Origin: Thermodesulfobacteriota bacterium
GTDB lineage: Bacteria > Desulfobacterota > Syntrophorhabdia > Syntrophorhabdales > JANXAF01
Assembly (NCBI GenBank): GCA_025062045.1
Contig: JANXAF010000003.1
Location: 41,444-105,443 of the forward strand
Direction of reading: 5' to 3'
DNA length: 64,000 bases
The position numbers and the translations under genes are program-made. The notes under the pieces were generated by a model, which worked only from the letters and a program-made list of their open reading frames with translations, made no database searches and was not told where the DNA came from. Position 1 is the first letter of the stretch. Each line of letters opens with the position of its first letter. Shown here piece after piece: positions 8,241-46,766 of this stretch.

Positions 8241-8249
8241 ATTTCCCTC

Positions 8250-9695: not shown

Positions 9696-9716
9696 ACGTT
9701 CCCCCCTCTTCTGAAT

Positions 9717-10271: not shown

Positions 10272-10280
10272 AGCGACCCC

Positions 10281-10844: not shown

Positions 10845-10855
10845 GATGCCCCCCT

Positions 10856-12283: not shown

Positions 12284-12309
12284 AGCTTAACCCCCCCTTT
12301 TTGTTATCA

Positions 12310-12347
12310 ATTATCAGTGGAATAACCGTGATTGTCAATTCAGTTAT
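12310..12347. promoter_or_regulatory. divergent promoter/operator region between the UbiD operon and the LysR gene
   Basis: On the minus strand: TTGACA (12338-12333), a 17-nt spacer, GATAAT (12315-12310), about 27 nt before the ATG at 12283. On the plus strand: TTGTCA (12332-12337) and TATATA near 12356. Dyads are TTAT-N7-ATAA (12311-12325, T-N11-A type) and ATAAC-N16-GTTAT (12322-12347). Confidence 0.4.
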
Positions 12348-12371
12348 CCTTATGATATATAACTAAAGGTT

Positions 12372-13277
12372 ATGCTCTCTTTCTCCCTCAACTCCCTTCT
12401 CGTCTTCTGCGCTGTCGCAAAATTTGGTAGCTTCTCTAAGGCAGCGGAAGCGCTTTTTATGACACAGCCGGGTGTTTCTAATCACGTAAAGCAGTTGGAA
12501 GCTCAGATAGGAAAAAAGCTCATAGTGAGAGGTAAAAACGGTATACATTTGACGGGTGAGGGAAAAACCGTTTTTAAGTATGCGGAAAGGATCGATAGCC
12601 TCGCAGAAGAACTGGAAAGGTACATAAGGAATGTAAAAAAAGAAGAGAGTGTGGTTTTAAGGATCGCCATAACTACTGTATATTCAAAAGTTTTGATACC
12701 CACGCTCCTAGGTAGCTTTATAAGGAACTACCCTAATGTCACCATAAAGTTGGATCTAGCCAATACCCAAGAGATGTTAGGAAAAGTTTTAAAAGGTGAA
12801 GTTGACTGTGCAATCTTGGCCAATGCTAAAAGATCCAAAAGGATAGAAGTGGTACCACTTGTGCGAGAGGAACTGGTTCTCATTACAGACAAGGCACATC
12901 CGCTCAGTGCGTATGAAACGGTCTCTTTAAAAGAGATCGCAAAATTTCCGCTCATTATGAGGGAGGAAGGATCTGCCACAAGAAAGGTCGTTCTTCAGGC
13001 CTTTGAATCTCTGCGGATCAAACCTTCCATAGTATTCGAGGTAAAAAGTACTGAGTTTATAAAGGAATGGGTGATGGAGGGAAGAGGGATTTCAATTCTC
13101 ATAAATAGAGCCATTTCTGAGGAAGAGAAGAAACACATGAACGTCATAAAGATTGAAGAGCCCCTGTACCTTGAGGTTTCAATAGTTTTTTTAAAATCGA
13201 ATAGGACAAACCACGCAATAGAAAGATTTGTAAACCATATAGAGGAGCTCAAATCGAAATCCCTTCTTTGTTCGTGA
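12372..13277 (+). CDS. LysR-type transcriptional regulator
   Basis: 301 aa. Has an N-terminal wHTH (FCAVAKFGSFSKAAEALFMTQPGVSNHVKQLE) and a C-terminal substrate-binding fold. Divergent from the UbiD operon. Confidence 0.9.
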   Translation: MLSFSLNSLLVFCAVAKFGSFSKAAEALFMTQPGVSNHVKQLEAQIGKKLIVRGKNGIHLTGEGKTVFKYAERIDSLAEELERYIRNVKKEESVVLRIAITTVYSKVLIPTLLGSFIRNYPNVTIKLDLANTQEMLGKVLKGEVDCAILANAKRSKRIEVVPLVREELVLITDKAHPLSAYETVSLKEIAKFPLIMREEGSATRKVVLQAFESLRIKPSIVFEVKSTEFIKEWVMEGRGISILINRAISEEEKKHMNVIKIEEPLYLEVSIVFLKSNRTNHAIERFVNHIEELKSKSLLCS

Positions 13278-13392
13278 AGGACGATAAGTTTTCATTATAA
13301 TCAATAAGATAATGTGATTTGACCTTTTTTCTCTTTTTTCACAAAGATAACAATAGCTACACTGTAGAGTAAGCCATAAGGGGGGGTAAATT

Positions 13393-13977
13393 ATGGGACA
13401 GAAAGATTGGGCTAATCCTGCGCCATGGGCTATCCAGTCCGTGGCTGTTCTTACGGCCTGTGCAGGTTTTGTTTTTGCTGGACTTGTGCCTGAATCTAGC
13501 GTACCACTTATAATTGGGATTCTACTTTCCTGCGTAATTCCACAGCTAATAGGAGGCATAATCCTATTCAGAAGAAATGAAATCCTTCTAGGTACCATCT
13601 GTGCTCTTTTCGGCACAGTGATAACGATGGGGGCTGCCTTTACCCTTTACGAGATCGTGTTTATGGCTCCGAAAGCGGGTGCTTTTACCCCGGAACTCTT
13701 GGGAGTGTTTTGGTTCGTGCTTTTTATAATAACTGAGGTTTTTGCCATCGGTTTCGGAAGGGCAAGCTGGTTTTTACTTCTTGGAATAGCTGAAGTGGGA
13801 GTGGCATTCCTCTTTTTGAGCATCAACGCATGGACGGGTTCCCAGATTGCTGGAATTATCGGAGGCTGGCTCCTTATTTTATTTTCTGCTTTTTGCATCT
13901 ATGCTTCTTCGGCTCTTCTTCTTGCCGAGCATTTTGAAAAACCTATCTTACCGATAGGAAGGCCTATATTCAAATAA
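13393..13977 (+). CDS. AceTr / GPR1-FUN34-YaaH (SatP-like) family carboxylate channel
   Basis: 194 aa with about 6 hydrophobic helices. Has the N-terminal family signature ANPAPW (E. coli SatP has ANPAPLG) and the C-terminal LPIG as in SatP. Strong GGGGGG SD. Confidence 0.7.
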   Translation: MGQKDWANPAPWAIQSVAVLTACAGFVFAGLVPESSVPLIIGILLSCVIPQLIGGIILFRRNEILLGTICALFGTVITMGAAFTLYEIVFMAPKAGAFTPELLGVFWFVLFIITEVFAIGFGRASWFLLLGIAEVGVAFLFLSINAWTGSQIAGIIGGWLLILFSAFCIYASSALLLAEHFEKPILPIGRPIFK

Positions 13978-13988
13978 AGGGGGGAACT

Positions 13989-15842
13989 ATGAGACATACC
14001 ACGAAATTTCCTGACCCACACGAATATTTAAAAGAGATACCAGAAGAACTCTCCGGCTGGGAGGAGATGTACCCGCCCCACTTCCTCTTCGGAAAAGAAA
14101 GAGAGGAGTGGGAAAAAAGACAATTCTGGTATTTGGACAAGATACATGCTCCGAACCCGATGCCACCACTCGATCACATATTCCAGCAAGCTTGGCAGAT
14201 CTCACTCTCCCAGCACACTACAAGAGTTTTCTGTATTCCTCCTGCCCAAGGCGTAGCCCACAGAATAGTTGGGTGCTACCAGTACATCTGTGCAGTTGAG
14301 CCGCCACCTGAGGAAATAGTTGCCGAAAAGGCGGTCTTTTTCAAAGAGAGGGCCCATTACCCTGTTGAGCACTATGATGAACTATGGGATGAGTGGCTGA
14401 AAAGGTTCAGAGCCCTGGGAGAAGAATTACGAAACATTAAGGTACCGGAGCTATTACCGAAGTATCTTTCCCGGGAAGAGGTTTATCCCAACGACTACAG
14501 AGGTTACACTCAGGCGTACGAACTTATAGAAGCCTTCGACAGAATGGTTGACCTTTTGTACAAGGGGTGGCAGTACCACTTCAATCTTTTAAACCTTTGT
14601 TACCTTTACTATCTTATGTTTTATGACCTCGCAAGGAAGCTATTTCCGGGAATAAGCGAAAGTGCGATAGGGAAAATGATAGCAGGAGTTGAGGCTTACA
14701 TGTTTAAACCAGAAGAAGAACTCTGCAGACTCGCAAGGAGAGCCCATGCCGAACCGAAAGTTGCGGAGATACTCAAAAAGGATAAGCCCGCAAAAGAGAA
14801 GATGGAGGAACTCAAGACATTTGAGGTTGGAAGAAGATGGCTCGACGAACTTGAGGACTCAAAGGATCCATGGTTCTATGTGAGCTGCGGAAGTGGGTGG
14901 TACCATTACGAGGGAAGCTGGATAAATAATCTTGATATACCTTTCGGATACTTAAAGAGTTATCTCGAAAGGTTGGATAGGGGAGAAAAGATTGAAAGGT
15001 CACTTAGCGAGATTGCGGAAGCGAGAGAAAAGATTGTGAGCGAGTATAAAAGGCTCATAAAGACTGATGAAGACAGAGAAAGCTTTGAGAGTGCCTACCG
15101 CGATTGTCTAACCTTGTACAGATTCGCCGAAGGCCACATATTCTGGGTTGAGAACTGGCTCCACACAATATGGTTCGAAAAGGCAAGAGAAGTCGGAAGG
15201 GTTCTCGTTAAAGCCGGTGCTCTCAAGCACGAAGATGACATATTCATGTTCAACAGGCTCGAAATCCCGACTCTCATAGAAGACGTATGCACCGCCTGGG
15301 CACTTGGAGAGGGGGTACCCACGCTTAAATGGGCTGAGAAGGCAGAGAAGAGAAGAAAGATACTGGAGGCTGCCGCAAAATGGACACCTTCTCCCGCTTT
15401 AGGAGTACCTCCGAAAGAAGTTGCGGAGCCCTTTACTGTTATGCTCTGGGGTATAACGACTGAAAAGGTCGAAGAGTGGTTAAAAGGTGTGTCAATAAAA
15501 CCGGAAGAGGTGGTGGAGATAAAAGGTTTCGCTTCCTCCAAAGGCCAGGTAGAAGGTCCGGCAAGGGTCGTAAAGACCATAGAGGAGATAGTCACGCTCC
15601 AGGAGGGAGAGATACTAGTTTGTCCGTCAACCAATCCATCTTGGGCTCCTGTCTTTACGAAGATAAAAGCGGCTGTTACGGACATTGGAGGGGTTACATG
15701 CCACGCGGCAATCGTGGCAAGAGAATACGGGCTTCCTTCAGTCACTGGGACTGGAATTGCAACCCAGGTGATAAAGACGGGAGACATAATAAGGGTGGAT
15801 GGAGATACAGGTGTTGTGACAATTATAAAAAGGGCCGCATAA
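13989..15842 (+). CDS. PEP-utilising-enzyme family protein with a C-terminal phospho-histidine swivel domain (phenylphosphate synthase alpha-like)
   Basis: 617 aa. The C-terminus VTDIGGVTCHAAIVAREYGLPSVTG is the mobile-domain His motif. The N-terminus PEELSGWEEMYPPHFLF is typical of PpsA-like proteins. Confidence 0.75.
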   Translation: MRHTTKFPDPHEYLKEIPEELSGWEEMYPPHFLFGKEREEWEKRQFWYLDKIHAPNPMPPLDHIFQQAWQISLSQHTTRVFCIPPAQGVAHRIVGCYQYICAVEPPPEEIVAEKAVFFKERAHYPVEHYDELWDEWLKRFRALGEELRNIKVPELLPKYLSREEVYPNDYRGYTQAYELIEAFDRMVDLLYKGWQYHFNLLNLCYLYYLMFYDLARKLFPGISESAIGKMIAGVEAYMFKPEEELCRLARRAHAEPKVAEILKKDKPAKEKMEELKTFEVGRRWLDELEDSKDPWFYVSCGSGWYHYEGSWINNLDIPFGYLKSYLERLDRGEKIERSLSEIAEAREKIVSEYKRLIKTDEDRESFESAYRDCLTLYRFAEGHIFWVENWLHTIWFEKAREVGRVLVKAGALKHEDDIFMFNRLEIPTLIEDVCTAWALGEGVPTLKWAEKAEKRRKILEAAAKWTPSPALGVPPKEVAEPFTVMLWGITTEKVEEWLKGVSIKPEEVVEIKGFASSKGQVEGPARVVKTIEEIVTLQEGEILVCPSTNPSWAPVFTKIKAAVTDIGGVTCHAAIVAREYGLPSVTGTGIATQVIKTGDIIRVDGDTGVVTIIKRAA

Positions 15843-15845
15843 ATT

Positions 15846-15866
15846 CGGGGGCCTTTTCGGCCCCTG
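15846..15866 (+). promoter_or_regulatory. GC-rich intercistronic stem-loop with no T-tract
   Basis: The sequence is cgggggcc-ttttc-ggcccctg: an 8-bp stem (one G-U) and a 5-nt loop between the two synthase-like genes. No U-run follows, so it is not a classic intrinsic terminator. Confidence 0.5.
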
Positions 15867-15888
15867 TCGTCGATTGGGGGGATCTATT

Positions 15889-16950
15889 ATGGGAAAATTC
15901 ACCAAAGGATTCCATGAGATAAGAAAGGACATGTTCCAAATTTGCGGTGGAAAGGCTTCGCATCTAGGGGAGCTAACAAGTATAGGACTTAATGTTCCGT
16001 ATGGTTTTTGCGTCACCGCGGACGCTTTTTTCCATCATCTTAGAAAAAACAACCTCGAAAAGAGAGTATTTGAGATCGCAAAAACGATAAACTACGACGA
16101 CATATCAGATCTTGATAGAAAAACGGAAGAGATCCGTTCGCTAATTGAAAACGCGGATATGCCAGATGAAATTGCGGATGAAATAGTGGAAGGGTACGAA
16201 AGTTTAGGAAAGGACGAACCTTATGTGGCTGTGCGTTCGTCGGTTGCCATAAAGGATAGTGACATATCCTCATTTCCGGGACTCATGGACACGTACCACT
16301 ACGTAAAAGGAACTCAAGCAATTATGGACTACGTAAAGAAATGTTGGGCTTCGGTTTTTACGTCCAGGGCAACGGCAGCGCGGTATAGAAAAGGGATAGA
16401 ACACGAAAGGGCAATAATCGCGCCTATTATCCAGAGGATGGTAAATGCAAAGTGCGCCGGTGTTATGTTTACATTGAACCCCGTAGATGGAGACGTATCC
16501 AAAATCGTGATAGAAGGTGCTTGGGGAATAGGGGAAGGGGTCGTATCCGGAAATGTGACACCCGACAGATTCGTGATAGACAAAATATTGCTCGAAATTA
16601 ACGAGCGGAAAGTCTCCTTAAAAACGGTGAAGTACGTTTACGACCCGGAACTAAAACGACCATCATACAAGGAAGTACCAGAGGAAGATAAAAGTAGATG
16701 CTGTTTAGAGGAAAAGGAGATAATGGAACTTGTAAGACTCGCAAAACTTATAGAAAACCACTACAAGACTCCCATGGATATAGAGTGGGCTGTGGATAAA
16801 GACTTTGAATTTCCGAAGAACGTTTTTATACTCCAGGCCCGGGCCGAGTCTGTCTGGAGTAAGAAAAAAGCAGAGCCTGTAATAGGTAAAAAGAGTAGTT
16901 ATGAACTCTTGATGGAAAGGGCCATGAAAACTATAAAGGTTGGACAATAA
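15889..16950 (+). CDS. PPDK_N / ATP-grasp nucleotide-binding protein (phenylphosphate synthase beta-like)
   Basis: Has GGKASHLGEL...GLNVPYGFCVT and AVRSSVAIKDSDISSFPGLMDTY (PEP synthase N-domain pattern). I prefer the ATG at 15889 (GGGGGGA SD 6 nt upstream) over the track's TTG at 15874. Confidence 0.75.
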   Translation: MGKFTKGFHEIRKDMFQICGGKASHLGELTSIGLNVPYGFCVTADAFFHHLRKNNLEKRVFEIAKTINYDDISDLDRKTEEIRSLIENADMPDEIADEIVEGYESLGKDEPYVAVRSSVAIKDSDISSFPGLMDTYHYVKGTQAIMDYVKKCWASVFTSRATAARYRKGIEHERAIIAPIIQRMVNAKCAGVMFTLNPVDGDVSKIVIEGAWGIGEGVVSGNVTPDRFVIDKILLEINERKVSLKTVKYVYDPELKRPSYKEVPEEDKSRCCLEEKEIMELVRLAKLIENHYKTPMDIEWAVDKDFEFPKNVFILQARAESVWSKKKAEPVIGKKSSYELLMERAMKTIKVGQ

Positions 16951-17039
16951 CGAAGATAAGTCAAGACTTTAACCTAGAATTTTCTTGACATTCGCGATCT
17001 TTTTCGGTCTAGTTCAATAACGAATGTAAAACGGAGGGT

Positions 17040-18374
17040 ATGGTCATGGCAGAAAGAGATAGTATCTATTGGAATCCGATTCTAGAGACTATGCCTAAAG
17101 AGAAACTAAGGGAATTGCAAATAAAGAAGTTCAAAAGGATCTTTGAGTGGGCTTACAACAATTCTCCTTTTTACAGAAGGCTCTACAAAGAGGCAGGCAT
17201 TGAACCAGAAGACATAAAGTCATACGAAGACATAAAAAAAGTCCCAAAGATAGACAAAGGGATGTTGAGGGATGTTCAAACGAGAGAGCCATTCCCATAT
17301 GGAGATATACTTGCCGTTCCTTTAAGAGAAGTTGTTGTTTTCAGGCAGACGAGCGGAACGACAGGAACCCCTGTTTACCAAGCCGACACTTGGCAGGACT
17401 GGGAATGGTGGTCGGAATGCTGGGCATACATACTTTACGCACAGGGCTACAGAGAAGAAGATCGAGTCTTTCTTCCCTTTGGTTACAACGTGTTCGTTGC
17501 TTTCTGGGCGGCCCATTATGCTGCAGAAAAGATAGGATGTGAAGTTGTCCCGGGTGGGGTACTCGACACGGAAGCAAGGATCTTAAAAATGCAGGAGCTT
17601 AAATGTACGGCCTTTGCCGCAACCCCCACATACGTACTGGGTATGGCAGATACAGCGAGGAAAATGGGTATAGATCCAAGATCTTTGGGAATAAAGAGAA
17701 TTACATGTGCGGGTGAGCCGGGTGCGAGCATTCCGGCAACTAAAAAGAGAATTGAAGAGGCTTGGGGAGCAAAAGTTTATGATCATGCGGGTGCAACAGA
17801 GATCGGTGCGTGGGGATACATGTGCACTGAGCAGACGGGATTACACGTAAATGAAGCCTTCTTCCTTGTGGAGATTGAGGATGTGGAGACGGGTGAGATA
17901 GTAGAGGAGCCGATGAAGAACGGAAAGATGATCGTGACGGCTTTCGACAGATACGCAAAGCCCTGTATCCGTTTTGATTCGAAGGATATCATAAGGTGGG
18001 CAAACTACGATTGTCCCTGTGGCAGAACTTTTAGACTAATAGATGGCGGAGTAATAGGAAGGGCAGACGACATAACAAAGGTAAAAGGTGTACTACTTGC
18101 CCCAACTGCCATCGAAGAGGTAGTCCGGAGTTTTAAGGAGCTGAGTAACGAGTATGAGGTTATAGTCTCTAAAAAGGGCGACATAGATGACATACTCTTA
18201 AAAATTGAAATATTGCCCGAATACGAAAGTAAAAGAGAGGATATTCTTTCAAGACTTAAAGACCAGCTAAGGCTAAAGACGAATCTCGGTTACAGAATTG
18301 AAGTACACCCATTCGGTTCCCTTCCTAGGTACGATGTAAAGGCAAAGAGATTCAAAGACTTAAGGAAGCAGTAA
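17040..18374 (+). CDS. PaaK / coenzyme-F390-synthetase family aryl-acid CoA ligase
   Basis: 444 aa. Has RQTSGTTGTP and ITCAGEPG, and the PaaK-type short architecture. The true start may be the ATG at 17046. Confidence 0.75.
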   Translation: MVMAERDSIYWNPILETMPKEKLRELQIKKFKRIFEWAYNNSPFYRRLYKEAGIEPEDIKSYEDIKKVPKIDKGMLRDVQTREPFPYGDILAVPLREVVVFRQTSGTTGTPVYQADTWQDWEWWSECWAYILYAQGYREEDRVFLPFGYNVFVAFWAAHYAAEKIGCEVVPGGVLDTEARILKMQELKCTAFAATPTYVLGMADTARKMGIDPRSLGIKRITCAGEPGASIPATKKRIEEAWGAKVYDHAGATEIGAWGYMCTEQTGLHVNEAFFLVEIEDVETGEIVEEPMKNGKMIVTAFDRYAKPCIRFDSKDIIRWANYDCPCGRTFRLIDGGVIGRADDITKVKGVLLAPTAIEEVVRSFKELSNEYEVIVSKKGDIDDILLKIEILPEYESKREDILSRLKDQLRLKTNLGYRIEVHPFGSLPRYDVKAKRFKDLRKQ

Positions 18375-18386
18375 GGGAGGACTGTT

Positions 18387-18569
18387 ATGGAGCATTACGA
18401 CATTTTCGCAATGGATAAAAAGATACAGGAGATAAAGGAAGCGGTCAAAGAACTCGAGAGGCTTGGGGAAGGAATAGAGGCTGTAAAAAGGAACTTAGTG
18501 CGACTTAAAGCGACTCTAAAGATGCTTGAACTAAATATCTCTGATGTAAAGCTTGTCTATCCTTCTTGA
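18387..18569 (+). CDS. 60-aa predicted helical/coiled-coil protein, unknown function
   Basis: Strong GGGAGG SD 7 nt upstream. Heptad-like K/E/L composition. 12 nt downstream of the ligase. Its 3' end overlaps the convergent Mo-enzyme gene by 13 nt. Confidence 0.5.
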   Translation: MEHYDIFAMDKKIQEIKEAVKELERLGEGIEAVKRNLVRLKATLKMLELNISDVKLVYPS

Positions 18570-20647
18570 GGATCAAGCCGTACTATCCTACAAGGTATCG
18601 CCCTAAGGTTGGGTGTCCCGAACTCCCTTCCAAACGGGGGGCTATCGTCTGTTAGGATATTTATATTGGACCTATCCCATCCGAATAAAGTCTCTTCCTT
18701 TTCCTCAGGAAAGTACCATCCGTAATCGCATAAAACTGTATTTTCGTGAATGTCCGGATTTATCTTTACCTTTTGGAGTATCCTTCCTTGCCGGGTTTCG
18801 ATGTATACGTAAGAACCCTCTTTTAAACCGAAAGATTCTGCAACGTCTGGATGGATCTCCACGCAGGGCTCAGGATACTTTTTTCTCAAAGCTTCTATAT
18901 TTTTTCCTCCAGAGTGTCTAAAATATGTGCGCTTAAGACTCGTAAGGATTAGAGGATATTGAGGATCTTTATCTTCACAAAGAACCTTTTCCAAATCGAC
19001 GGAAGGTAAAGGGGGAAAACCCCATTCTTCCAATCTTTTTGAATATATCTCCACCTTGCCAGAAGGCGTTGGGAAACCGTTTTGTATGTGATGGTTAGGT
19101 TTTGGCTCACCCTTTACGTATCCGATCTCGCATAAATCGTCAAACCTTATCCCTAAAGGAGAAAGGATGTAGTCGAGACACTCTTTTTCGGTTTTCCAGA
19201 AAAGATCTCCGAATCCGCAGGGAATGGAGAGTGCTCTTAAAATCTCATAATCCGATTTTGCTAGACCCACGTTTACCACTTTTTTCTGAGCCGAAAGGAC
19301 AGGGAGCGAATACGGTGGAAGGGAGAGGCTATCGAATTCAAAGAAAGTGGCCGAGGGAAGGAAATAGTGCGCTAAAGAGGCAGTTGGGGTCATAAAATGA
19401 TCAGAAACGACAAGAAGTTCAACCTTTCTTAGAGCTTCGTACACTTTTTTGGCATTCGGATAAGTAAGGAGAAAGTTTCCACCTTGAATGAATAAACCCT
19501 TTATTGGATAGGGGTCCTCTTTAAGGATGGCTTCAATTACAAGCTGAGGCAGCGCATAATAAAGATTGGGTAGCATGTAGCCTTTTCCACCGATCCTCCT
19601 TTTCCTCTCCTCCAAAGAGAGAAGGTTATGTAAGGTTAGTTCGGAAGAACCCCTTTCGATTATCGATGGAGCCTTGTAGTATATGTCCCCACCTGGAATA
19701 TTGAGATTTCCGGAAATAGCCCTCAAGATACATATCGCTCTTGCCGTCTGGAAGTTCTGAGTTGTGTGATCTATTCCGTTTCCCCATTGAATAACTGAAG
19801 GTTTAAGTCCTGCGTAGGCTTTTGCGATCTTTAAGATGAGATCCTTCGGTACGTCAGTTAATTTCTCCACCACTTCGGGTTTGAATGGATCCAACGTGTT
19901 TTTCAATTCTCCGAAGCCTATAGTATACTTCTCAACGAAATCTCTATCGTAAATTTCCTCTTTGACAATGACATAGATGAGGCCTAAGGCCAAAAGAAGA
20001 TCACTCCCAGGCCTTATCTTCACCCATAGATCCGCAATTTTTGCAATCTCAGTCTTTATGGGATCGATAACTATGAGAAAGGCTCCGCTTTTTTTTGCAT
20101 CTTTTATTCTCTCGTAAACATGATGAAGCGTCTCAGAGACGTTATTGGCCCATACTACAATGCACTTGGGTGGGTACTCGAGATCACATATCGCGTAAAA
20201 ACCGTAAGTCAATGTGGATGCCATCCTGCGCGGAATAAAGCAAACGTGTGCCATCGATGTGATATTTGGGCTTCCGAAAGCGTTGGCAAAACGGGAAAGG
20301 TAATCGTCGTGGAGACCCTTTGCAGACCCTCTCATGAAAACTATAGATTCCGGCCCGTATTGAGCCTTTATCTCCAATAACTTTTCAGCAATTTCTCCTA
20401 TTGCCTCATCCCAGGATATTTTTTTCCAAAGCTTCCCTTCTTTACGTAAGGGTATAGTGATCCTTTCTGGATGGTAAAGATAATCTATGGAGGTTAGCCC
20501 CTTTATGCAGAGCTTTCCTCGATTAAGAGGGTGATCAGGATCCCCCCTTACTTCGACGACCTTTGAATCCGAAACTTTAACGATGATTCCGCACCCTATC
20601 TGGCAAAGACCACAGGTGCTTTTAATCTCTCTTTGAGCGTATCTCAT
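18557..20647 (-). CDS. cytoplasmic molybdopterin (Mo/W-bisPGD, DMSO-reductase superfamily) enzyme with an N-terminal [4Fe-4S] site
   Basis: 696 aa. Has the N-terminal C-x2-C-x3-C...C motif (CGLCQIGCG...KLCIKG). No twin-arginine signal. A candidate metal-ligand Cys lies in SMAHVCFIP. FMTPTASLAHYFLP, TPSGKVEIYS and PNLRA are collinear with acetylene-hydratase-type members as I recall them. Confidence 0.8.
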   Translation of the reverse strand: MRYAQREIKSTCGLCQIGCGIIVKVSDSKVVEVRGDPDHPLNRGKLCIKGLTSIDYLYHPERITIPLRKEGKLWKKISWDEAIGEIAEKLLEIKAQYGPESIVFMRGSAKGLHDDYLSRFANAFGSPNITSMAHVCFIPRRMASTLTYGFYAICDLEYPPKCIVVWANNVSETLHHVYERIKDAKKSGAFLIVIDPIKTEIAKIADLWVKIRPGSDLLLALGLIYVIVKEEIYDRDFVEKYTIGFGELKNTLDPFKPEVVEKLTDVPKDLILKIAKAYAGLKPSVIQWGNGIDHTTQNFQTARAICILRAISGNLNIPGGDIYYKAPSIIERGSSELTLHNLLSLEERKRRIGGKGYMLPNLYYALPQLVIEAILKEDPYPIKGLFIQGGNFLLTYPNAKKVYEALRKVELLVVSDHFMTPTASLAHYFLPSATFFEFDSLSLPPYSLPVLSAQKKVVNVGLAKSDYEILRALSIPCGFGDLFWKTEKECLDYILSPLGIRFDDLCEIGYVKGEPKPNHHIQNGFPTPSGKVEIYSKRLEEWGFPPLPSVDLEKVLCEDKDPQYPLILTSLKRTYFRHSGGKNIEALRKKYPEPCVEIHPDVAESFGLKEGSYVYIETRQGRILQKVKINPDIHENTVLCDYGWYFPEEKEETLFGWDRSNINILTDDSPPFGREFGTPNLRAIPCRIVRLDPQEG

Positions 20648-21633
20648 AGTTTAAAAAGAGTTTTTGCATTTTCGGAGAAGATCTTTTGGCCTTCCTCAGT
20701 AGAGAGATTTAGAGATTTGAGACTCTCTATTGCCCTTTCCACACCTCCTATTGGATGAGGATAATCGGTCCCAAAGAGCACATGGTCGATCCCCATGTAT
20801 TCTATCGCACACCTCATCGCGGGCAAGTGGAAGGAGACGGTGTCGATGTAAACGTTCGTTTTGTAATATATAGAAGGTTTTTTCATTGCTGAAAATTTAA
20901 AATCCTTTCCGTAGGTTTCATATGCGTCATCCACTCTTCTCACCAGATAAGGAAATACCCCTCCAAGGTGAGGATGGATGACCTTTAGGTTTTGAAACCT
21001 GTCGAAAACACCGAATAGTATGAGTCCTGCAACTGCAATAGTCGTATCCATGATGAATCCAAAAAGGGGGATTGGCATCATGACCTTTTTTAGAACTGTT
21101 GTAGTAATAGGAGGTCCTGGATGAACAAGGATTGGAAGATCAAAATTCGATGCGGCCTCGTATATCGGATAAAATTCCTGGAAGTATATCGGTTTACCAG
21201 CGACATTTGAGAACATAATAACTCCTTTTGCGTCAAGATCCCTCTTTGCCCGTTCTAGTTCCTTTACTGATGCTAAAACGTCTTGAATGGGAAGAGTCGC
21301 CAAAAAATGAAGTCTCCCTTTGCTCTTTTGACATATGGAAGCAAAATAGTCATTGAGCTTTTTTGCCCAAAAAACACCATCCCTTTTAGGCAGTAACTCT
21401 ACACTCGGTGTCGTAAGACTCATCAGATTGACATCTATTCCTTTTTCATCCATATCCTTGATCCTTTCTTCCACATCCAAATGTCCCTTTTTTTCGATTG
21501 TTGCAAGCCTCGTTCCCTTAAAGTAGATGAGAATCTTCTCTTCCTTTTTTCTGATCGTTATCGTTTTAGAGTGGCTTTCCAGATAGTCAAGCCATTCTTT
21601 CGGGTATAAATGGTTATGGACATCTATTAACAA
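20644..21633 (-). CDS. amidohydrolase_2 (ACMSD/gamma-resorcylate-decarboxylase family) protein with the canonical HxH motif
   Basis: 329 aa. Has IDVHNHLYP, ILVHPG, IHPHLGG and LFGTDYPH. There is a 4-nt ATGA overlap with the Mo-enzyme gene. Confidence 0.8.
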   Translation of the reverse strand: MLIDVHNHLYPKEWLDYLESHSKTITIRKKEEKILIYFKGTRLATIEKKGHLDVEERIKDMDEKGIDVNLMSLTTPSVELLPKRDGVFWAKKLNDYFASICQKSKGRLHFLATLPIQDVLASVKELERAKRDLDAKGVIMFSNVAGKPIYFQEFYPIYEAASNFDLPILVHPGPPITTTVLKKVMMPIPLFGFIMDTTIAVAGLILFGVFDRFQNLKVIHPHLGGVFPYLVRRVDDAYETYGKDFKFSAMKKPSIYYKTNVYIDTVSFHLPAMRCAIEYMGIDHVLFGTDYPHPIGGVERAIESLKSLNLSTEEGQKIFSENAKTLFKL

Positions 21634-21642: not shown

Positions 21643-21846
21643 CTAGTAAAGCATCTCCACAGGGAAGAAAATCTTTATGGCACCCATCGGACACTCAAGT
21701 CTACAGGACCCACAGTGCCAGCATTCATCGGCATACTTGACAATTGGCATATTTTTTTCGGAATCGAAATGTATAACATCCAAAGGACATATCTTATCGC
21801 ACATCCCACATCCAGAACATCTATCCATATCTATATTCGGGGGCAT
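21643..21846 (-). CDS. 2x[4Fe-4S] mini-ferredoxin, AprB-N-terminal-domain-like (copy A)
   Basis: 67 aa. Has CSGCGMCDKICP and CWHCGSCRLECP. Overall pattern is MPP.I....C.GC...C....K......CW.C..C...CP.GAI. Confidence 0.85.
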   Translation of the reverse strand: MPPNIDMDRCSGCGMCDKICPLDVIHFDSEKNMPIVKYADECWHCGSCRLECPMGAIKIFFPVEMLY

Positions 21847-21861: not shown

Positions 21862-23547
21862 TTAAGGAATTTTGTCATAGCTTAACTTTTTAAACTCTTT
21901 TACAACTTTCCCATCTTTCTGAAAGATCACTATTTCCCCCTCAAACTCTTCCTTTGTCTCCGGATAGTCAGAACGGAAATGGAAGATTCCGAACCTAGTT
22001 TCTTTCCTTTCCAACGAAGCATGGCACATGATCGTACCGATATCTATCAGTTGGTTTGTTTCATGAACTCTCATAAGCTCGTGAAAATCTTTTGCCTTGA
22101 GAGCTTGCGCCTCCTCTTTTAAGCTTTGAAGCTTATCTATTGCCAGATTTAAACTTTTTTCATTTCTTACGGGTCCTGCGTATTCCCACATCACTCTCCT
22201 TATTACATTTTCCACTGTTTTATGATCTAGATTTCCAGTGACCCATAGCGGTCTATAGATTGCTTCTTTTAGTCTCTGAATCTCTTTTTTATCGACTCTT
22301 ATTGGGTGAGAGTAGTTTTTGGCATATTCAGCCGCCACTTTGCCGGAAAGATATCCTCCGGTTGTGCACAAATGCACGCATCGCATCTGGTCAGTACAGT
22401 CACCACAGGCAAAGAGGCCTTCTATCGAACTTGATGTCCTCTCGTCTATCATTATTCCGCTTCCACAAACTTCAGAAGGACCTGCCTGCATACCTTCCGA
22501 ATACATAACCTCCAAAGGTTCTTTAGAGAGATCCACCCCCTTTTGTTCCAAAAAATCAGGAAGGGTATCTTTGTCGTAACCGAGTGTCCGTTTTAGATGG
22601 TTTAGATCAGCTTCCGAGAGGTGGGTACAGTCGATGTAAATCGGTCCGTTTCCCATTTGGATCTCTTTCATGACCGCATAAACAAGCATACTTCTTGGAG
22701 CTTTGTTCCCCATAGGATGGTATTTTGCCATAAATTCCTCGCCGTAAGCGTTGATCAACCTTCCACCCATTCCCATAAGAGCGTTCAATCCGGCCGCACT
22801 GAACCCTTTCGGCACGACCGTAATCCTCATGTACTCCATGTTTGCGAGCTTGGCACCGACTTTATAAGCCATAACTTGTGCTGCTCCAGTATTTTGTGGA
22901 CACTGCCAAGTATTAAAAGGGAGCCCTGTTGGGTTATGGAAGAGCCTTGTTGTGCATCCTGTGGCTAAAATAGTCGCCTTCGCTTTAACTATATAAAAAT
23001 CCCCCGTTCTTATATTAAAGCCAACTGCGCCTATAACTCGTTCCCCATCATAGAGGAGATCGGTCATCATACATCTCTCTAAGGCAAAGACCCCAAGTCT
23101 TCTTGCTTCTTTTGCTAAAGCCGGTTTGAGATTCTTACCGTTAAAGTTTATGAAATAGGGTCCTGGCTGTCCTAAGGACTGGGTCCTAAGATACTTACCG
23201 TCACTCTGTTTAAGGGTGCATCCTATCTTTTCCATCCTTTCTAGTGCCGCCTCAAGTTCCTTGCAGAAGACTGCATCCTGTACCTTCAAATCTACTGCTC
23301 CTCGGGCGATCTTCGCCACATAACTTAGGTACGCTTCTCTCGTATCCCACGGTCCTGTATTGAGATAGGCCATGAAATGGTCAACCCCTCCGGCGGTTGC
23401 CCCGCATCTTTCGAGTGTCCCTTTATCTGCCACTATAACTTTTACGTTTTTCTCTAGTGCGCCAAGCGCCGCATTATTACCGGCAAGCCCACCGCCTACT
23501 ATGAGAACGTCCGTTTCGAATTCGTATTCTCTTATGTTTCCGATCAT
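21862..23547 (-). CDS. AprA-like FAD flavoprotein of the succinate dehydrogenase/fumarate reductase/APS reductase superfamily (copy A)
   Basis: 561 aa. Has an N-terminal DVLIVGGGLAGNNAA dinucleotide fold. FYIVKAKATILATG, NAYGEEF, GPIYID and DFHELMRVHE...RKETRFGIFHFRSDYPE are collinear with A. fulgidus AprA as I recall it. Confidence 0.75.
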   Translation of the reverse strand: MIGNIREYEFETDVLIVGGGLAGNNAALGALEKNVKVIVADKGTLERCGATAGGVDHFMAYLNTGPWDTREAYLSYVAKIARGAVDLKVQDAVFCKELEAALERMEKIGCTLKQSDGKYLRTQSLGQPGPYFINFNGKNLKPALAKEARRLGVFALERCMMTDLLYDGERVIGAVGFNIRTGDFYIVKAKATILATGCTTRLFHNPTGLPFNTWQCPQNTGAAQVMAYKVGAKLANMEYMRITVVPKGFSAAGLNALMGMGGRLINAYGEEFMAKYHPMGNKAPRSMLVYAVMKEIQMGNGPIYIDCTHLSEADLNHLKRTLGYDKDTLPDFLEQKGVDLSKEPLEVMYSEGMQAGPSEVCGSGIMIDERTSSSIEGLFACGDCTDQMRCVHLCTTGGYLSGKVAAEYAKNYSHPIRVDKKEIQRLKEAIYRPLWVTGNLDHKTVENVIRRVMWEYAGPVRNEKSLNLAIDKLQSLKEEAQALKAKDFHELMRVHETNQLIDIGTIMCHASLERKETRFGIFHFRSDYPETKEEFEGEIVIFQKDGKVVKEFKKLSYDKIP

Positions 23548-23549: not shown

Positions 23550-24575
23550 CTAATTTAGTCTCAGTAATCTTTTTGCATTTCCCTCAAATATAGCAGTCTT
23601 GTCTTCCTCCGTAAGAATGTCGAGAGTCTCGATTATATGGATAGTTTCTCTTATGTAAGGAGAGTCCTCCTCGTGTATGTTTGGACGTGAGTCGAAGGGC
23701 ATGTCGGTTCCAAATAGTACATGATCGACCCCAAAAAAGAGGATTCCACACCTTGTGGATTCTTTTGCGCCGAAAAGAGCTGTGTCCGCATAGAACATTT
23801 TAAAGTAATCGATCGGTCTTTTCTTCATAGATTTTATGAGGGATTCGTAGTCTTCACCGGAAGTCCTAGAACCGAGCATGTCCCATGCTGGTCCAACCCT
23901 TCCAGCCTGGTAAGGTGCTATCCCGCCCAGGTGATGGGTTATTATCTTTATGGAGGGGTACTTCTCGAAGATTCTGGAGAAGACTAAGTGTGCCATGCAC
24001 ACACTCGTCTCATACGGCCATCCGAATATGAACCATATCTCGTAATGGCTTTTCGTTTCCGCCTTATAATCGGGAAAGTCAGAACCCCTCGTGGGGTGTA
24101 TCCATATGGGTCTTTCGATTTCTGCCATGTATTTGAATAGGGGTTCAAATTCTGGCCTATCCAATGGTTTCCCAAGGACATTGGTAAAGAGCTGAATCCC
24201 GAAAGCTCCAAGCTCATCTATTGCACGTTGAGCCTCTTTTAGTGAAGCGTCTATGTCATTCAATGGAAGGGAGGCGACAAACCCCAAAAACCTATCGGGG
24301 TATCTATCTACGATCTCTTTCATTGAGTCATTTGCGATCCTTGCAAGCTCGTATGTGACATTCGGTGGGCCGAATGTTTCGATTGGTGGAGCCGCAAGGG
24401 TCAAAACCTGAACGTAATTTTCAAACTTATCCATGATTCTAAATCTGTCTTCGAGCTCGTAGAGGGCATAAATATTTCGCACCCTTTTGTTCATATCTTT
24501 CGCATGGGGCGCGAGCTTTTGGACCTTATCCAGGTATTTTTTTGGCAAGATGTGGCAGAACATATCGATCTTCAT
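23550..24575 (-). CDS. amidohydrolase_2 (ACMSD-family) protein, atypical F-x-H N-terminal motif (copy A)
   Basis: 341 aa. Has KIDMFCHILP (ACMSD has KIDIHSHILP), PIWIHP, ITHHLGG and LFGTDMPFD. Confidence 0.8.
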   Translation of the reverse strand: MKIDMFCHILPKKYLDKVQKLAPHAKDMNKRVRNIYALYELEDRFRIMDKFENYVQVLTLAAPPIETFGPPNVTYELARIANDSMKEIVDRYPDRFLGFVASLPLNDIDASLKEAQRAIDELGAFGIQLFTNVLGKPLDRPEFEPLFKYMAEIERPIWIHPTRGSDFPDYKAETKSHYEIWFIFGWPYETSVCMAHLVFSRIFEKYPSIKIITHHLGGIAPYQAGRVGPAWDMLGSRTSGEDYESLIKSMKKRPIDYFKMFYADTALFGAKESTRCGILFFGVDHVLFGTDMPFDSRPNIHEEDSPYIRETIHIIETLDILTEEDKTAIFEGNAKRLLRLN

Positions 24576-26452
24576 CTCTTACTCCTCTTTATCCATTCGT
24601 AGATTATAAAGGGGGCCGATATTGAAAGGCCTACTATATCGTAAATTACTCCCGGCACCATAACTGTGAGACCACTTAGGAATAGAATCGCCCTGACCCA
24701 TAATTTTAGTTCGCTAAAAAGATAGCCCTCAACTCCGATAGCGAGAAGTACCACACCTATGACTCCAAAAATTATGGACTCGACTATTTCGATAGGTGAC
24801 CCGATGAGGATTAGACTCGGTTTAAATATGAATATGAAGGGCACAATGTAAGCAACGATACCTAGCTTCATCGCCTGGTATGCGGTTTTGAGCATATCAT
24901 CCTCTGCTATAGCCGCTGCCGCGTACGCTGCAAGGCAAACAGGTGGGGTGAGAAAAGAAAGAACTGCGAAATAAAAGACGAAAAAATGGGCAAGAATCGG
25001 TTGTATTCCAAGCTCAATAAGGGCGGGGGCAGCAAGCGTTACCATAAGGAGATAAGAACCGGTTGCGGGCATTCCCATACCGAGAATCACTGCTCCAAAT
25101 GCCGTAAGGAGAAGTAGAGGTACGATCTTCTTCCCGGCAAGTTCAACTAGAAGAGCTGAGAACGAAAATGCAAGTCCCGTAATGGAAAGAATCCCTATAA
25201 GAATTCCAGCTCCTGCACATGTTATACAGATCTCCAGGAAAAATCTTCCACATTCCGAGAATATGGGGAAGATACTTTTTGCTCTCACTCTTTTTAGCAC
25301 GAGCCACCCTAGAAGAAATGCGAATGCTGTAGTATAGATACCCGCGTATTCAGCCTCCATCTGCTTAAAAAAGAGAAGATATATGAGAAGTAGAAATGGG
25401 ATGGATATAAGCCAATTCTTTTTCAAAGTTTGGTATAGGGATGGGATTTTACTTTTCTCCATCCCTTTAAGTCCCAACTTTGCGGCCTCCAGATCTACTT
25501 GAACGAAAACGGCAAAATAGTAAAGTAAAGCGGGTATTATGGCGGCGATAGCGACCTTTGCGTATGGAATTCCTAGAAAGGTGGCCATGATAAATGCCGA
25601 CGCTCCCATAATGGGAGGCATAATCTGGCCGCCTGTTGAAGAGACGGCCTCTACAGCCCCTGCGTAGTAAGGCTTGTAGCCGGCTTTCTTCATAAGAGGT
25701 ATGGTGAATGTGCCTGTTGTTACAACGTTGGCAACCGCGCTTCCAGAAATCATGCCGAAAAGGGAAGATGCGAAAACAGCTACCTTCGCCTGACCTCCTC
25801 TAAATCTTCCTAAAATCGATGTTGCCACATCGTTAAAAAACTCACCCAAGCCGACCTTTGATATGGTCTGTCCGAATAGAATGAATACGAGAACGACTGT
25901 GGATGATACGATAACAGGAACCCCAATTATCCCTTGAGGATCAACGTAGAGGTAGTTGGCCAAATTCTTCCAAGAGACACTCTTTAGGCCTAGTGGAAGG
26001 TGGGAAAGAAAAAGGGCGACCAGTATGAAAAAGACGATAATTACTAAAAAAGGGTATCCCGTAACCCTTCTTATTGCCTCAAGGGTAAGTAGGATGGCAA
26101 GTATGCCTAAAAAGATCCTGTGGGGTTTTAAGAGCCCGACTTCTATCATTATTTCGTCGTAGAAGATGCCCAGATAAAAGAAGCAGAAAAGAGAAACAGA
26201 TGCAAAGACGAAATCGTAAAAAGGGACTTTATCTGAGGTTATCCTTCTTGAGGGACGGATGAATATAAAAGTTGAAAAGAGTGTAAGTCCGTAGATCAAA
26301 GCTACCCATTGGTGGATGTGGAATGACTTAGAGAAGTATGCAGGGAGGTTTAGAATAGCTGTTATCGCAAGGAGGGGGATAAGGAATAGGCCTAAGTTTC
26401 CGACTATCTTCGCTATCCCCCCCGGATCCCTAAAACGGGATACCCTTTCCAT
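24572..26452 (-). CDS. TRAP transporter fused permease (TAXI-associated DctQM-type)
   Basis: 626 aa and polytopic. Has GGQAKVAVFASSLFGMISGSAVANVVTTGTFTIPLMKKAGY. It is a clear paralog of 42451..44301. Confidence 0.85.
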   Translation of the reverse strand: MERVSRFRDPGGIAKIVGNLGLFLIPLLAITAILNLPAYFSKSFHIHQWVALIYGLTLFSTFIFIRPSRRITSDKVPFYDFVFASVSLFCFFYLGIFYDEIMIEVGLLKPHRIFLGILAILLTLEAIRRVTGYPFLVIIVFFILVALFLSHLPLGLKSVSWKNLANYLYVDPQGIIGVPVIVSSTVVLVFILFGQTISKVGLGEFFNDVATSILGRFRGGQAKVAVFASSLFGMISGSAVANVVTTGTFTIPLMKKAGYKPYYAGAVEAVSSTGGQIMPPIMGASAFIMATFLGIPYAKVAIAAIIPALLYYFAVFVQVDLEAAKLGLKGMEKSKIPSLYQTLKKNWLISIPFLLLIYLLFFKQMEAEYAGIYTTAFAFLLGWLVLKRVRAKSIFPIFSECGRFFLEICITCAGAGILIGILSITGLAFSFSALLVELAGKKIVPLLLLTAFGAVILGMGMPATGSYLLMVTLAAPALIELGIQPILAHFFVFYFAVLSFLTPPVCLAAYAAAAIAEDDMLKTAYQAMKLGIVAYIVPFIFIFKPSLILIGSPIEIVESIIFGVIGVVLLAIGVEGYLFSELKLWVRAILFLSGLTVMVPGVIYDIVGLSISAPFIIYEWIKRSKR

Positions 26453-27480: not shown

Positions 27481-28230
27481 TCACGTTCTTTTTTGTGAAA
27501 AATAGTCGCTTTTTGCAAGCGCTTTCTCCATAACATCACCCACGTATCTTAGGTGATCTTCCAGTAACCTTTTCACCTCCTCTTTTTTTCCGTTTTTTAA
27601 GGCAAGAACTATCTTTTCGTGATCTGCAACGTTCTTTTTAGGAAAAGAAAAGGGAAGTTTCACCTGACTTCTAAAATCCGAAACGACCGTCATTATGAGT
27701 TCTATTACTAGGATGAAGACCGAATTCTTGGAGATCCTTGCCAGGTGTCTGTGAAACTCGATATTTTCGTGGAAAGGCTGAATTTTGTTCTTTATCTTTT
27801 CCTTCGACACTCGAACGTTCTCTTCAAGCGTTCGAATGTCTTCGGCGGTAACATTTTCTAAAACATGCTTTATCATAATCTTTTCGATCTCAATCCGTGC
27901 AACCGTGAGATCGTGGATATCTATCTTTCTCATAAGAAATGCTTCAAGAAAGAGGTTAGAAAATGTGTTCATTATTGTGTCGGCAACAAATGCTCCCTTA
28001 CCTAAACCTTTCTCAACTTTTATATAGCCTGAAAGCTCAAGTAGTCTCATGGCCTCTCTTATCGTCTGTCTTCCAACGTTAAATTTCCTTGCAAGCTCAG
28101 ATTCTGACGGAAGCCTATCGCCAGGTTTAAGCTCACCGGCTAAAATGAGCCTCTTAATCTCGTCTGAGACGACTTCAAACGTTCTCTTTCTAATGATGGG
28201 GGTAACGTTGAGAAGATGTGATACAGTCAT
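27481..28230 (-). CDS. GntR-family (FadR/FCD-type) transcriptional regulator
   Basis: 249 aa. Has the wHTH LPSESELARKFNVGRQTIREAMRLLELSGYI and an all-helical C-terminal domain. It is the first gene of the operon. Confidence 0.85.
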   Translation of the reverse strand: MTVSHLLNVTPIIRKRTFEVVSDEIKRLILAGELKPGDRLPSESELARKFNVGRQTIREAMRLLELSGYIKVEKGLGKGAFVADTIMNTFSNLFLEAFLMRKIDIHDLTVARIEIEKIMIKHVLENVTAEDIRTLEENVRVSKEKIKNKIQPFHENIEFHRHLARISKNSVFILVIELIMTVVSDFRSQVKLPFSFPKKNVADHEKIVLALKNGKKEEVKRLLEDHLRYVGDVMEKALAKSDYFSQKRT

Positions 28231-45767: not shown

Positions 45768-46766
45768 TTAGTTTAACTTAAGGATCCTTTGGGCGTTTTT
45801 GTAAAAGACCTTTTCCTTTACAGAGTGTGAGTCTATCATACTCTCCAAAGCCTCAATGGTGGAACGGATTGATATATCGCCATTTTCCACATCGTACGGC
45901 ATGTCAGTTCCAAAAAGGAGATGATCTTCGCCAAAGAACTCAAGGGCGCATCTTAAAGCCAGAGGATTTCCATTCAGTGCAGTATCCGCATAGAACATCC
46001 TATAGTATTCGATCGGATGTTTTTTTAAACCAGGAAAAAACTTGAGTCCGAGCCGTTCCAGTCCATTGTCGTAATGGACAACTATGCGATTCGAAAGATA
46101 AGGTATCATACCACCGGCATGATGAGTTATAAATTTGATGTTTGGTAGACGCTCAAATATGCCAGAAAATACAAGCCTCGTCATGGCTTTTGCAGTTTCA
46201 AAAGGCCATCCAAATATCGAAAATATCTGGTGGTAAGAGAATTGCTCTACGGCGTAATCGGGCTCACTAGAGCTTCTCATGGGATGTATCCAGATGGGAA
46301 GATCATAATCTGCCATAAGTTTGTAAAGCGGAAAGAGCTCTTCAGAACTTAGTGGTTTTCCAAGAACCCTAGTGTAGATCTGAATACCTTTAAATTTAAG
46401 CTTTTCTATAGCCCTCTTTGTCTCCTCAATAGCGATACTTATGTTGTTAAGTGGGATATTTGCGATGGCTCCCACAAATCTGTCAGGATAATTCTCTACT
46501 AGTTCTGCCATTTCATCGTTACATATACGTGCGAGACGCAAAGCCTCATCGGGGTCGCTAACTACCTCTTCGATGGGAGGCATCGTCGTCGAGATAACCT
46601 GTTTGTATCCTTCGTACTTTTCCATTTTTTTTATCCTTCCATAAAAGTCGGTAAGGATAGGACGTTTATCTTGCACCGCCTTTTCGGTAGGAAACCTATC
46701 GGCGTATTTGTAAAGAGCTTCCTTGTACTTAGGAAGCATGACGTGATTAAAGATATCTATCTTCAT
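45768..46766 (-). CDS. amidohydrolase_2 (ACMSD-family) protein, atypical F-x-H motif (copy B)
   Basis: 332 aa. Has KIDIFNHVMLP, PIWIHP, ITHHAGG and LFGTDMPYD. Roughly half the residues are identical to 23550..24575 over a hand-aligned core of about 130 aa. Confidence 0.8.
   Translation of the reverse strand: MKIDIFNHVMLPKYKEALYKYADRFPTEKAVQDKRPILTDFYGRIKKMEKYEGYKQVISTTMPPIEEVVSDPDEALRLARICNDEMAELVENYPDRFVGAIANIPLNNISIAIEETKRAIEKLKFKGIQIYTRVLGKPLSSEELFPLYKLMADYDLPIWIHPMRSSSEPDYAVEQFSYHQIFSIFGWPFETAKAMTRLVFSGIFERLPNIKFITHHAGGMIPYLSNRIVVHYDNGLERLGLKFFPGLKKHPIEYYRMFYADTALNGNPLALRCALEFFGEDHLLFGTDMPYDVENGDISIRSTIEALESMIDSHSVKEKVFYKNAQRILKLN

Follow-up and report, generated by a model that had tools for sequence, protein, structure and literature searches.

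Two amidohydrolases from a Thermodesulfobacteriota contig belong to an ACMSD-type clade with a replaced first beta1 histidine and an added histidine at beta6

The stretch analyzed here, called the window, comprises 64,000 nucleotides of contig JANXAF010000003.1 from a Thermodesulfobacteriota bacterium (assembly GCA_025062045.1, positions 41,444 to 105,443 of the forward strand) and encodes three paralogous amidohydrolases, AH_F1, AH_F2, and AH_H3. A preliminary description of the window had stated that two of them carry F-x-H where relatives such as aminocarboxymuconate-semialdehyde decarboxylase (ACMSD) carry H-x-H, and that the third retains the canonical pair. The open reading frames (ORFs) are as described there, including the H-x-H of the third, which serves as the contrast within the window:

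23550..24575, minus strand: AH_F1, 341 amino acids (aa), PF04909 amidohydrolase of the clade with F/Y-x-H at the first strand and HH at the sixth, N-terminus MKIDMFCH; MKIDMFCHILPKK
45768..46766, minus strand: AH_F2, 332 aa, second member of the same clade, N-terminus MKIDIFNH; MKIDIFNHVMLPK
20644..21633, minus strand: AH_H3, canonical H-x-H paralogue, starting MLIDVHNH (DVHNH), with H-P-H at beta6

The Phe6 codons were confirmed as TTC in AH_F1 (24558-24560) and TTT in AH_F2 (46749-46751), and His8 of AH_F1 is CAC (24552-24554). The unusual N-terminus is not a start-codon artefact, because strong ribosome-binding sites precede both starts (GAGGAG for AH_F1 and AGGAGG for AH_F2), the start codon of AH_F1 and the stop codon of the TRAP permease gene upstream overlap in the sequence ATGA, and homologues begin at the same position. 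All three paralogues were assigned to Pfam family PF04909 (Amidohydro_2) with E values from 6e-33 to 7e-39, scoring 115.3 (AH_F1), 134.8 (AH_F2), and 126.6 bits (AH_H3) against a gathering score of 26.4 bits; no NCBIfam model matches any of the three. AH_F1 is 45% identical to AH_F2 and 31% identical to AH_H3.

The zinc ligands of ACMSD are His6, His8, His174, and Asp291 in the human enzyme and His9, His11, His177, and Asp294 in the Pseudomonas enzyme. The beta6 His serves to activate the water bound to the metal, and an Arg from the partner subunit (Arg235*/239*) binds a substrate carboxylate (PMC9021598, PMC11650718). Residues 1-12 of AH_F1 align by HMMER to residues 1-12 of human ACMSD without a gap (MKIDmFcHILPK versus MKIDiHsHILPK), with F6 falling on His6 and H8 on His8, and the same pairing was obtained in a MAFFT alignment of 99 sequences. 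That alignment also pairs H160, H215, R226, and D291 of AH_F1 with His174, His224, Arg235, and Asp291 of human ACMSD. The proposal that Phe occupies the first-ligand position was borne out in this way, as was the observation that the later motifs (IWIHP, THHxGG, and FGTDMP) are intact, since they were found in both AH_F1 and AH_F2. The active-site features of AH_F1 are located as follows:

24552..24566, minus strand: beta1 motif D4-M-F6-C-H8, with Phe in place of the first metal-ligand His and the second His kept
24096..24098, minus strand: His160 (beta5, IWIHP), equivalent to the ACMSD metal ligand His174 and invariant in a 72-sequence clade alignment
23931..23936, minus strand: His214-His215 (end of beta6, THHLGG), H215 being equivalent to ACMSD His224 and H214 a clade-specific extra His
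23898..23900, minus strand: Arg226, equivalent to ACMSD Arg235*, the carboxylate-binding Arg from the partner subunit
23703..23705, minus strand: Asp291 (beta8, FGTDMP), equivalent to the ACMSD ligand Asp291

The equivalent residues of AH_F2 are F6, H8, H161, H215-H216, R227, and D288. An AlphaFold2 model of AH_F1 (pLDDT 84, pTM 0.87) placed the first strand, beta1, at residues 2-9 (DSSP). When this model was used in Foldseek, the top match was PDB entry 3IJ6 (E 6e-23; TM 0.79 by query and 0.89 by target), followed by ACMSD, gamma-resorcylate decarboxylase (gamma-RSD), IDCase, and LigW, all with probability 1.00 and TM 0.72-0.80. The predicted fold is a (beta/alpha)8 barrel nearest to ACMSD, gamma-RSD, LigW, and IDCase, as in ACMSD-type (COG2159-like) enzymes, and the beta5 His, beta6 His, and beta8 Asp of that type are present as H160, H215, and D291. 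To the extent that sequence and predicted fold can tell, Phe6 lies at the first-ligand position.

A second signature, which the preliminary description missed, is the paired gain of His214, the first His of 'THH', directly before the canonical beta6 His. It is 98% conserved in the clade; outside it, human ACMSD carries Ala at this position, AH_H3 Pro, LigW Gly, and the H-x-H paralogues Pro, Ala, or Ser. A hidden Markov model (HMM) search of every ORF in 93 fetched sequences yielded 113 PF04909 ORFs, among which a non-His residue at position 6 was paired with His at 214 in 93 of 93 cases and His at position 6 with Pro, Ala, or Ser in six of six. Both signatures, a non-His residue at the first beta1 ligand and HH at beta6, are shared by AH_F1 (F6 with H214-H215), AH_F2 (F6 with H215-H216), and 3IJ6 (Y9 with H205-H206). 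The clade-specific His214 is the obvious candidate for compensating the loss of the first His.

Exceptions at beta6 were also seen. Three sequences (P0122, P0162, and P0166) retain H214 and have the canonical H215 replaced by Gln or Leu (AHQMGG, AHLAGG, and THQ-GG), which hints that H214 matters no less than H215. Loss of H214 was seen in no sequence within the clade; P0227, a Q-x-H sequence with Ala at that position, groups outside with AH_H3.

The distribution of the trait was examined at increasing sequence distance. Among the 120 closest database proteins (60-87% identity) position 6 is Phe in all but one, which has Val. A scan of GTDB species genomes gave 80 loci with 274 confirmed matches (these and other fetched loci carry L-numbers below), and all 79 readable N-termini in these loci had [FY]-x-H. 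When 1.84 billion cluster representatives (50% identity) were searched exhaustively with HMMER, 517 clusters were returned at E<=1e-30; the best 150 of the 517, reaching down to 33% identity, were tallied at position 6, and 108 of them had a complete N-terminus. These 108 representatives, one of which is supplied by a haloarchaeon, had Phe (69), Tyr (25), Trp (3), Ala (4), Ser (4), Cys (1), or Gln (1) at the position, and none of the 108 had His or Glu. The substitution is far beyond chance. The suggestion that the variant marks a subfamily was thus upheld, the trait being clade-wide (108 of 108 representatives non-His). Loci with the trait span more than 10 phyla, and the groups observed were Desulfobacterota/'Deltaproteobacteria', Acidobacteriota, Chloroflexota, Rokubacteria/Methylomirabilota, Binatia, Gemmatimonadota, Verrucomicrobiota, Actinomycetota, Alphaproteobacteria, and Burkholderiales. 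Judged from these alignments, replacement of the first His is the defining mark of an old and large PF04909 clade, which numbers thousands of sequences across many bacterial phyla.

In a neighbour-joining tree, AH_F1 and AH_F2 nest inside this clade on separate branches, while AH_H3 and ACMSD fall outside. Given this placement and their 45% identity, the two genes are old paralogues and not the products of a recent duplication, as the term 'duplicated cassette' in the preliminary description had implied. Members with Phe and with Tyr are interspersed in the tree, which indicates that the Tyr hydroxyl is dispensable and, in turn, that the residue at position 6 is not a ligand. Seven residues (D4, H8, N82, H160, R226, D264, and D291) show no variation across 72 diverse members, seven others (R44, Q56, E114, W186, P187, H214, and H215) are conserved in at least 90% of the clade, and the conservation of H8, H160, H215, R226, D264, and D291 across the clade is 93-100%.

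Homologues are named generically or, by transfer, as 'aminocarboxymuconate-semialdehyde decarboxylase' (several names from the Joint Genome Institute [JGI]). NCBIfam has no model for the clade: 68 of the 72 members had no match and the other four had weak matches to an L-fucono-1,5-lactonase model. Literature searches on COG2159, PF04909, the ACMSD subfamily, and TAXI or AprA-like genes with amidohydrolases found nothing on the clade. Whether an F-x-H subfamily had already been characterized, a possibility raised in the preliminary description, has a divided answer: a structure is available (3IJ6), and no function, NCBIfam model, or paper was found.

AH_F1 lies in a minus-strand cassette (cassette 1) that runs in the order GntR regulator, TAXI protein, fused TRAP permease, AH_F1, flavoprotein, ferredoxin, AH_H3, and molybdopterin oxidoreductase. 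Apart from the two amidohydrolases, its genes are:

27481..28230, minus strand: GntR/FCD regulator at the head of cassette 1, with the same arrangement in L001 and L088
26456-27484, minus strand: TAXI solute-binding protein (Pfam NMT1_3)
24572-26452, minus strand: fused TRAP permease (Pfam DctM), translationally coupled to AH_F1
21862-23547, minus strand: flavoprotein resembling AprA and the PAPS-reductase alpha subunit (best PDB match 8A8O, E 2.7e-66; 1JNR, E 1.2e-47)
21643-21846, minus strand: ferredoxin, 67 aa, 2x[4Fe-4S]
18557..20647, minus strand: cytoplasmic molybdopterin (Mo/W-bisPGD) oxidoreductase, overlapping AH_H3 by 4 bp

The oxidoreductase resembles the formate dehydrogenase alpha subunit and PhsA, below every NCBIfam cut-off, and its pairing with AH_H3 is conserved in L001. 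AH_F2 closes a second minus-strand cassette (cassette 2) in the order AprA-like flavoprotein, ferredoxin, TctC, TctB, TctA, and AH_F2:

49889-51550, minus strand: AprA-like flavoprotein, 28% identical to that of cassette 1
49655-49885, minus strand: ferredoxin, 76 aa, two [4Fe-4S]
48691-49662, minus strand: TctC
48264-48686, minus strand: TctB
46784-48391, minus strand: TctA

Functionally the module is present twice, in two deeply diverged copies. Between AH_F2 and a third TAXI-TRAP system (41485-44301, plus strand) lies a region (44272-45400, minus strand) with a 190-aa ORF without a Pfam match and short ORFs at 44876-45094 and 45269-45397; these look like fragments of one disrupted gene.

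Clade genes are typically translationally coupled to a TAXI-TRAP transporter and, in the window, one is also associated with a TTT transporter, both systems for carboxylates. TAXI-DctM directly upstream of the clade gene is a constant neighbour among close homologues (L085, L088, and L089-L092). The flavoprotein-ferredoxin pair, by contrast, recurs near the clade gene only in some Desulfobacterota (L001, L084, and L086). Most members of this many-phyla clade lack the flavoprotein cassette, so that the variant is not specific to it, contrary to what the preliminary description had concluded. The cassette was likewise rejected as an explanation of the variant, an AprA-like neighbour having been found in one of the 80 loci and in a few Desulfobacterota contigs. 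L084 (Deltaproteobacteria bacterium RBG_16_49_23) points the same way on specificity, as an AH_H3-like H-x-H amidohydrolase (1903-2922) fills the slot between TRAP and flavoprotein genes there, and an F-x-H gene belongs to the following TAXI-TRAP operon, at a distance of 5 kb. In gene order, H-x-H and F-x-H amidohydrolases appear interchangeable. The AprAB-like pairs themselves sit in carboxylate-uptake operons without sulfate-activation genes alongside, and they flank the clade gene in L086 too.

Beyond the transporter, neighbours were counted in the 80 loci from Pfam-confirmed clusters only, because ORF calling in high-GC loci also produced long antisense ORFs that were spurious. AMP-ligases (14-16 loci), thiamine pyrophosphate enzymes (18), UbiD decarboxylases (10), and CoA-transferases (7) were the more frequent; pcaB-like lyases, intradiol dioxygenases, and enol-lactonase-like alpha/beta hydrolases occurred in five to six each, and Mo enzymes of the xanthine-dehydrogenase type adjoin the clade gene in four of the 80. 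What these neighbourhoods share is a set of genes for taking up and degrading organic carboxylates, which are often aromatic. In Rokubacteria/Methylomirabilota loci (L054 8512-9570, L079 3256-4293, L062 10724-11761, L050 11497-12627, and ~6 more), the F-x-H gene is followed 2-3 kb downstream by a second PF04909 paralogue, whose sequence contains V-I-D-A-D-G-H and D-F-P-H-W-D, both of the motifs published for amidohydrolase-related dinuclear oxygenases (AROs) (PMC13154177).

Immediately upstream of cassette 1, the window also carries an anaerobic phenol-type gene cluster (6643-18374), which by sequence resembles phenylphosphate synthase and carboxylase:

6643-7995, 8250-9695, and 10856-12283: three UbiD paralogues
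9717-10271: HAD phosphatase
12372-13277: LysR regulator
13393-13977 (194-aa ORF), 13989-15842 (PEP-utilizers), and 15874-16950 (PPDK_N): split enzyme resembling phosphoenolpyruvate (PEP) synthase
17040-18374: PaaK-type CoA ligase

The best explanation of these observations is that AH_F1 and AH_F2 are probably functional enzymes of an ancient ACMSD-type (PF04909, COG2159-like) TIM-barrel clade. As read from the alignments, that clade is defined by two paired changes, namely, of the first beta1 His to a non-ligand (Phe more often than Tyr, and Tyr more often than Trp) and of the residue before the beta6 His to His. The rest of the ACMSD-type apparatus is retained, with H8, H160 (beta5), H215 (beta6), D264 (beta7), D291 (beta8), and the trans-subunit R226. 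We tentatively favour the view that both proteins are still metal-dependent carboxylate lyases, probably decarboxylases, with a rebuilt first shell. One divalent metal would still be bound through H8, H160, and D291, with H214 either taking over as the fourth ligand or standing in the second shell, and the aromatic side chain at position 6 would line the substrate pocket and make no metal contact. Loss of one rigid ligand could leave room for direct chelation of the metal by the substrate, by analogy with LigW, gamma-RSD, and IDCase. The reaction would then be a redox-neutral C-C lyase step on an imported organic or aromatic carboxylate, most likely a decarboxylation, although hydration or tautomerisation is possible instead, and the product would enter CoA-ligase and aromatic-acid pathways.

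Several points weigh against this interpretation. Conservation of H8, H160, and D291 does not by itself prove metal binding; LigI keeps the 'ligand' residues yet works without a metal. The Arg47 insertion and Trp188/Trp191 of ACMSD are absent or not conserved. The neighbourhoods beyond the transporter are heterogeneous, so that the term 'decarboxylase' derives from the retained catalytic residues only, and the covariation of F6 with H214 comes from related sequences and may reflect a single ancestral event as opposed to functional coupling. Some PF04909 enzymes, moreover, have no cofactor (PMC10811679). A bolder form of the lyase reading, which we regard as quite doubtful, would have the metal centre genuinely rebuilt: either H214 would replace the beta1 His and draw the metal toward beta5/beta6, or a bare 2-His-1-Asp triad would leave three sites open. 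The reaction would then be new to PF04909 and, in Desulfobacterota, would form part of a new anaerobic carboxylate-breakdown module with the AprAB-like flavoprotein and ferredoxin.

The cofactor-free members of PF04909 raise the question of whether the clade could instead comprise metal-independent hydrolases or lactonases, in which the remaining His, Asp, and Arg residues would polarise and hydrolyse a lactone or ester in a LigI-like manner. Such an activity would account for the weak matches to the L-fucono-1,5-lactonase model (best E 1.5e-6), but these lie far below any cut-off and concern only 4 of 72 members. It also has a precedent in ellagic acid lactonase (EAL), a PF04909 protein reported as a lactonase (preprint 10.64898/2025.12.05.692447), whose mutagenesis primers translate to an N-x-H N-terminus (MADNKVIDINMH12FLP), the first His being replaced there as well. 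Peptides derived from those primers nevertheless read GSSFPV where the clade has G-T-D-x-P, and IHHTPG at beta5; with different beta5 and beta8 motifs, EAL was rejected as a clade member. Because every one of the nearest solved relatives, whether by sequence or by fold, is a metal-dependent decarboxylase and H8, H160, and D291 are invariant, we consider the metal-independent alternative unlikely. A metal-dependent hydratase or tautomerase, similar to LigJ or to the oxaloacetate-tautomerase activity of ACMSD, could act on an unsaturated di- or tricarboxylate while the flavoprotein makes or consumes the double bond. TTT and TAXI transporters carry di- and tricarboxylates, flavoprotein-ferredoxin pairs flank the gene in both window cassettes, L084, and L086, and the PF04909 hydratase LigJ is among the PDB matches; oxaloacetate is indeed tautomerised by ACMSD (PMC11650718). 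The flavoprotein, though, adjoins the gene in a few Desulfobacterota only and is absent from 79 of the 80 genome loci, its best relatives are APS/PAPS reductases and not fumarate reductases, and the paralogues that score nearest to LigJ/LigY have Glu at beta8 where the clade has Asp, all of which make this scheme distinctly unlikely.

Two further identities fare much worse. That the genes encode true ACMSD (EC 4.1.1.45) would agree with the JGI names of several homologues and with ACMSD being the second-best PDB family, but the first Zn ligand is missing, 95 of 97 clade members lack the Arg47 insertion, conservation does not extend to Trp188 and Trp191, the window has no kynurenine or nitrobenzoate pathway genes, and the clade profile favours 3IJ6 (312 bits) over ACMSD, the next match (213 bits); the chance of this identity is close to nil. 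An ARO, or an inactive relic, is also highly improbable. AROs are PF04909 proteins with a changed first beta1 His, in their case to Asp (PMC13154177), and a ferredoxin is encoded near both AH_F1 and AH_F2, yet neither ARO motif is present in the clade and the gene set of the window looks anaerobic. A relic is contradicted by catalytic residues that are invariant across phyla and by translational coupling to the transporter.

The clade is a useful enzyme-discovery lead and not a one-off oddity of the source genome. PF04909 has more than 100,000 proteins, only a handful of which are characterized (PMC10811679). A very large clade that spans many phyla and pairs a non-coordinating aromatic residue at the first beta1 ligand position with an extra His is sharply delimited and easy to search for, and so makes a good place to look for a new metal-site variant and, probably, for a new substrate class. 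Given the tight coupling to TAXI-TRAP, screening the binding protein for ligands would be a practical way to find the substrate, and recognition of the clade would correct widespread 'ACMSD' and 'metal-dependent hydrolase' annotations. The finding is not surprising in principle, as ligand variation in the family is known and one member's crystal structure entered the PDB in 2009.

That member, 3IJ6, is the only solved protein of the clade, a structural-genomics entry released in 2009 as an 'uncharacterized metal-dependent hydrolase' of Lactobacillus acidophilus. The entry carries no assigned function or substrate, and no publication mentioning it was found in the literature searched. It is the best PDB match of AH_F1 by sequence as well (E 1.2e-47). 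Like AH_F1, it combines a beta1 motif lacking the first His (KIDAYAHILP, Y-x-H) with HH at beta6 (LVHHAG) and keeps H161, R217, and D263; it differs in having Tyr for Phe, in being ~36% identical and shorter, and in lacking the 164-176 and 236-253 loops.

ACMSD (human 2WM1/4OFC; Pseudomonas fluorescens 2HBV) shares with the clade the fold, the MKID-x-x-x-H-ILPK N-terminus, the beta5 His, the beta6 His, and the beta8 Asp, and its trans-subunit Arg235*/239* is matched in AH_F1 by the invariant R226. It differs at its first Zn ligand, His6, where AH_F1 has Phe6, so that the His-x-His ligand pair is missing, and in having Ala where the clade has His before the beta6 His. The substrate-site residues diverge further: 95 of 97 clade members have a gap at the Arg47 column, leaving no counterpart of Arg47/Arg51, and the columns of Trp188 and Trp191 (Trp194 in P. 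fluorescens) are variable. As the Arg47 insertion is absent and the two Trp residues are absent or not conserved, the substrate of the clade must differ from ACMS, the ACMSD substrate, and the label 'ACMSD' is, on these comparisons, wrong for the clade.

LigI, other cofactor-free PF04909 lactonases, and EAL belong to the same family and have no metal or a weak need for one, but they fall in other clades, with other beta5 and beta8 motifs, and their reactions are hydrolytic instead of lyase reactions. The Mn-dependent o-hydroxybenzoate decarboxylases (gamma-RSD, LigW, 2,3-DHBD, and salicylate decarboxylase) have the same family and fold and also a non-His residue at the first-ligand position. 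In the gamma-RSD/LigW group this residue is Glu, a true ligand, whereas that of the clade is non-coordinating, and LigW has Gly before the beta6 His where the clade has His. In the gamma-RSD/LigW group the substrate chelates the metal through its carboxylate and ortho-hydroxyl, CO2 is released, and the beta8 Asp is the proton donor, a chemistry that supplies a working model for the clade; IDCase provides a further precedent in the family for a substrate that chelates the metal (PMC6305744).

The AROs (PtmU3, AibH2, SfbO, and DitZ) belong to PF04909 too, and in them the first beta1 His has become Asp (D-x-H), together with a D-x-P-H-x-[DE] motif and two metals (PMC13154177). Neither motif occurs in the clade, and membership of the AROs was rejected on that basis: the C-terminal D-x-P-H-x-[DE] was found in none of 97 clade sequences (AH_F1 has DMPFDS and AH_F2 DMPYDV), and beta1 of AH_F1 reads D4-M-F6-C-H8 where the ARO-like paralogues of the loci have D-x-H at positions 6-8 (V-I-D-A-D-G-H). 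What AROs and the clade have in common is the replacement of the first beta1 His, which marks this position as an evolutionary switch point for cofactor type (PMC13154177). Across the family the first beta1 residue tracks cofactor and chemistry, with His for Zn in ACMSD and IDCase, Glu for Mn in the hydroxybenzoate decarboxylases, and Asp in the dinuclear oxygenases.

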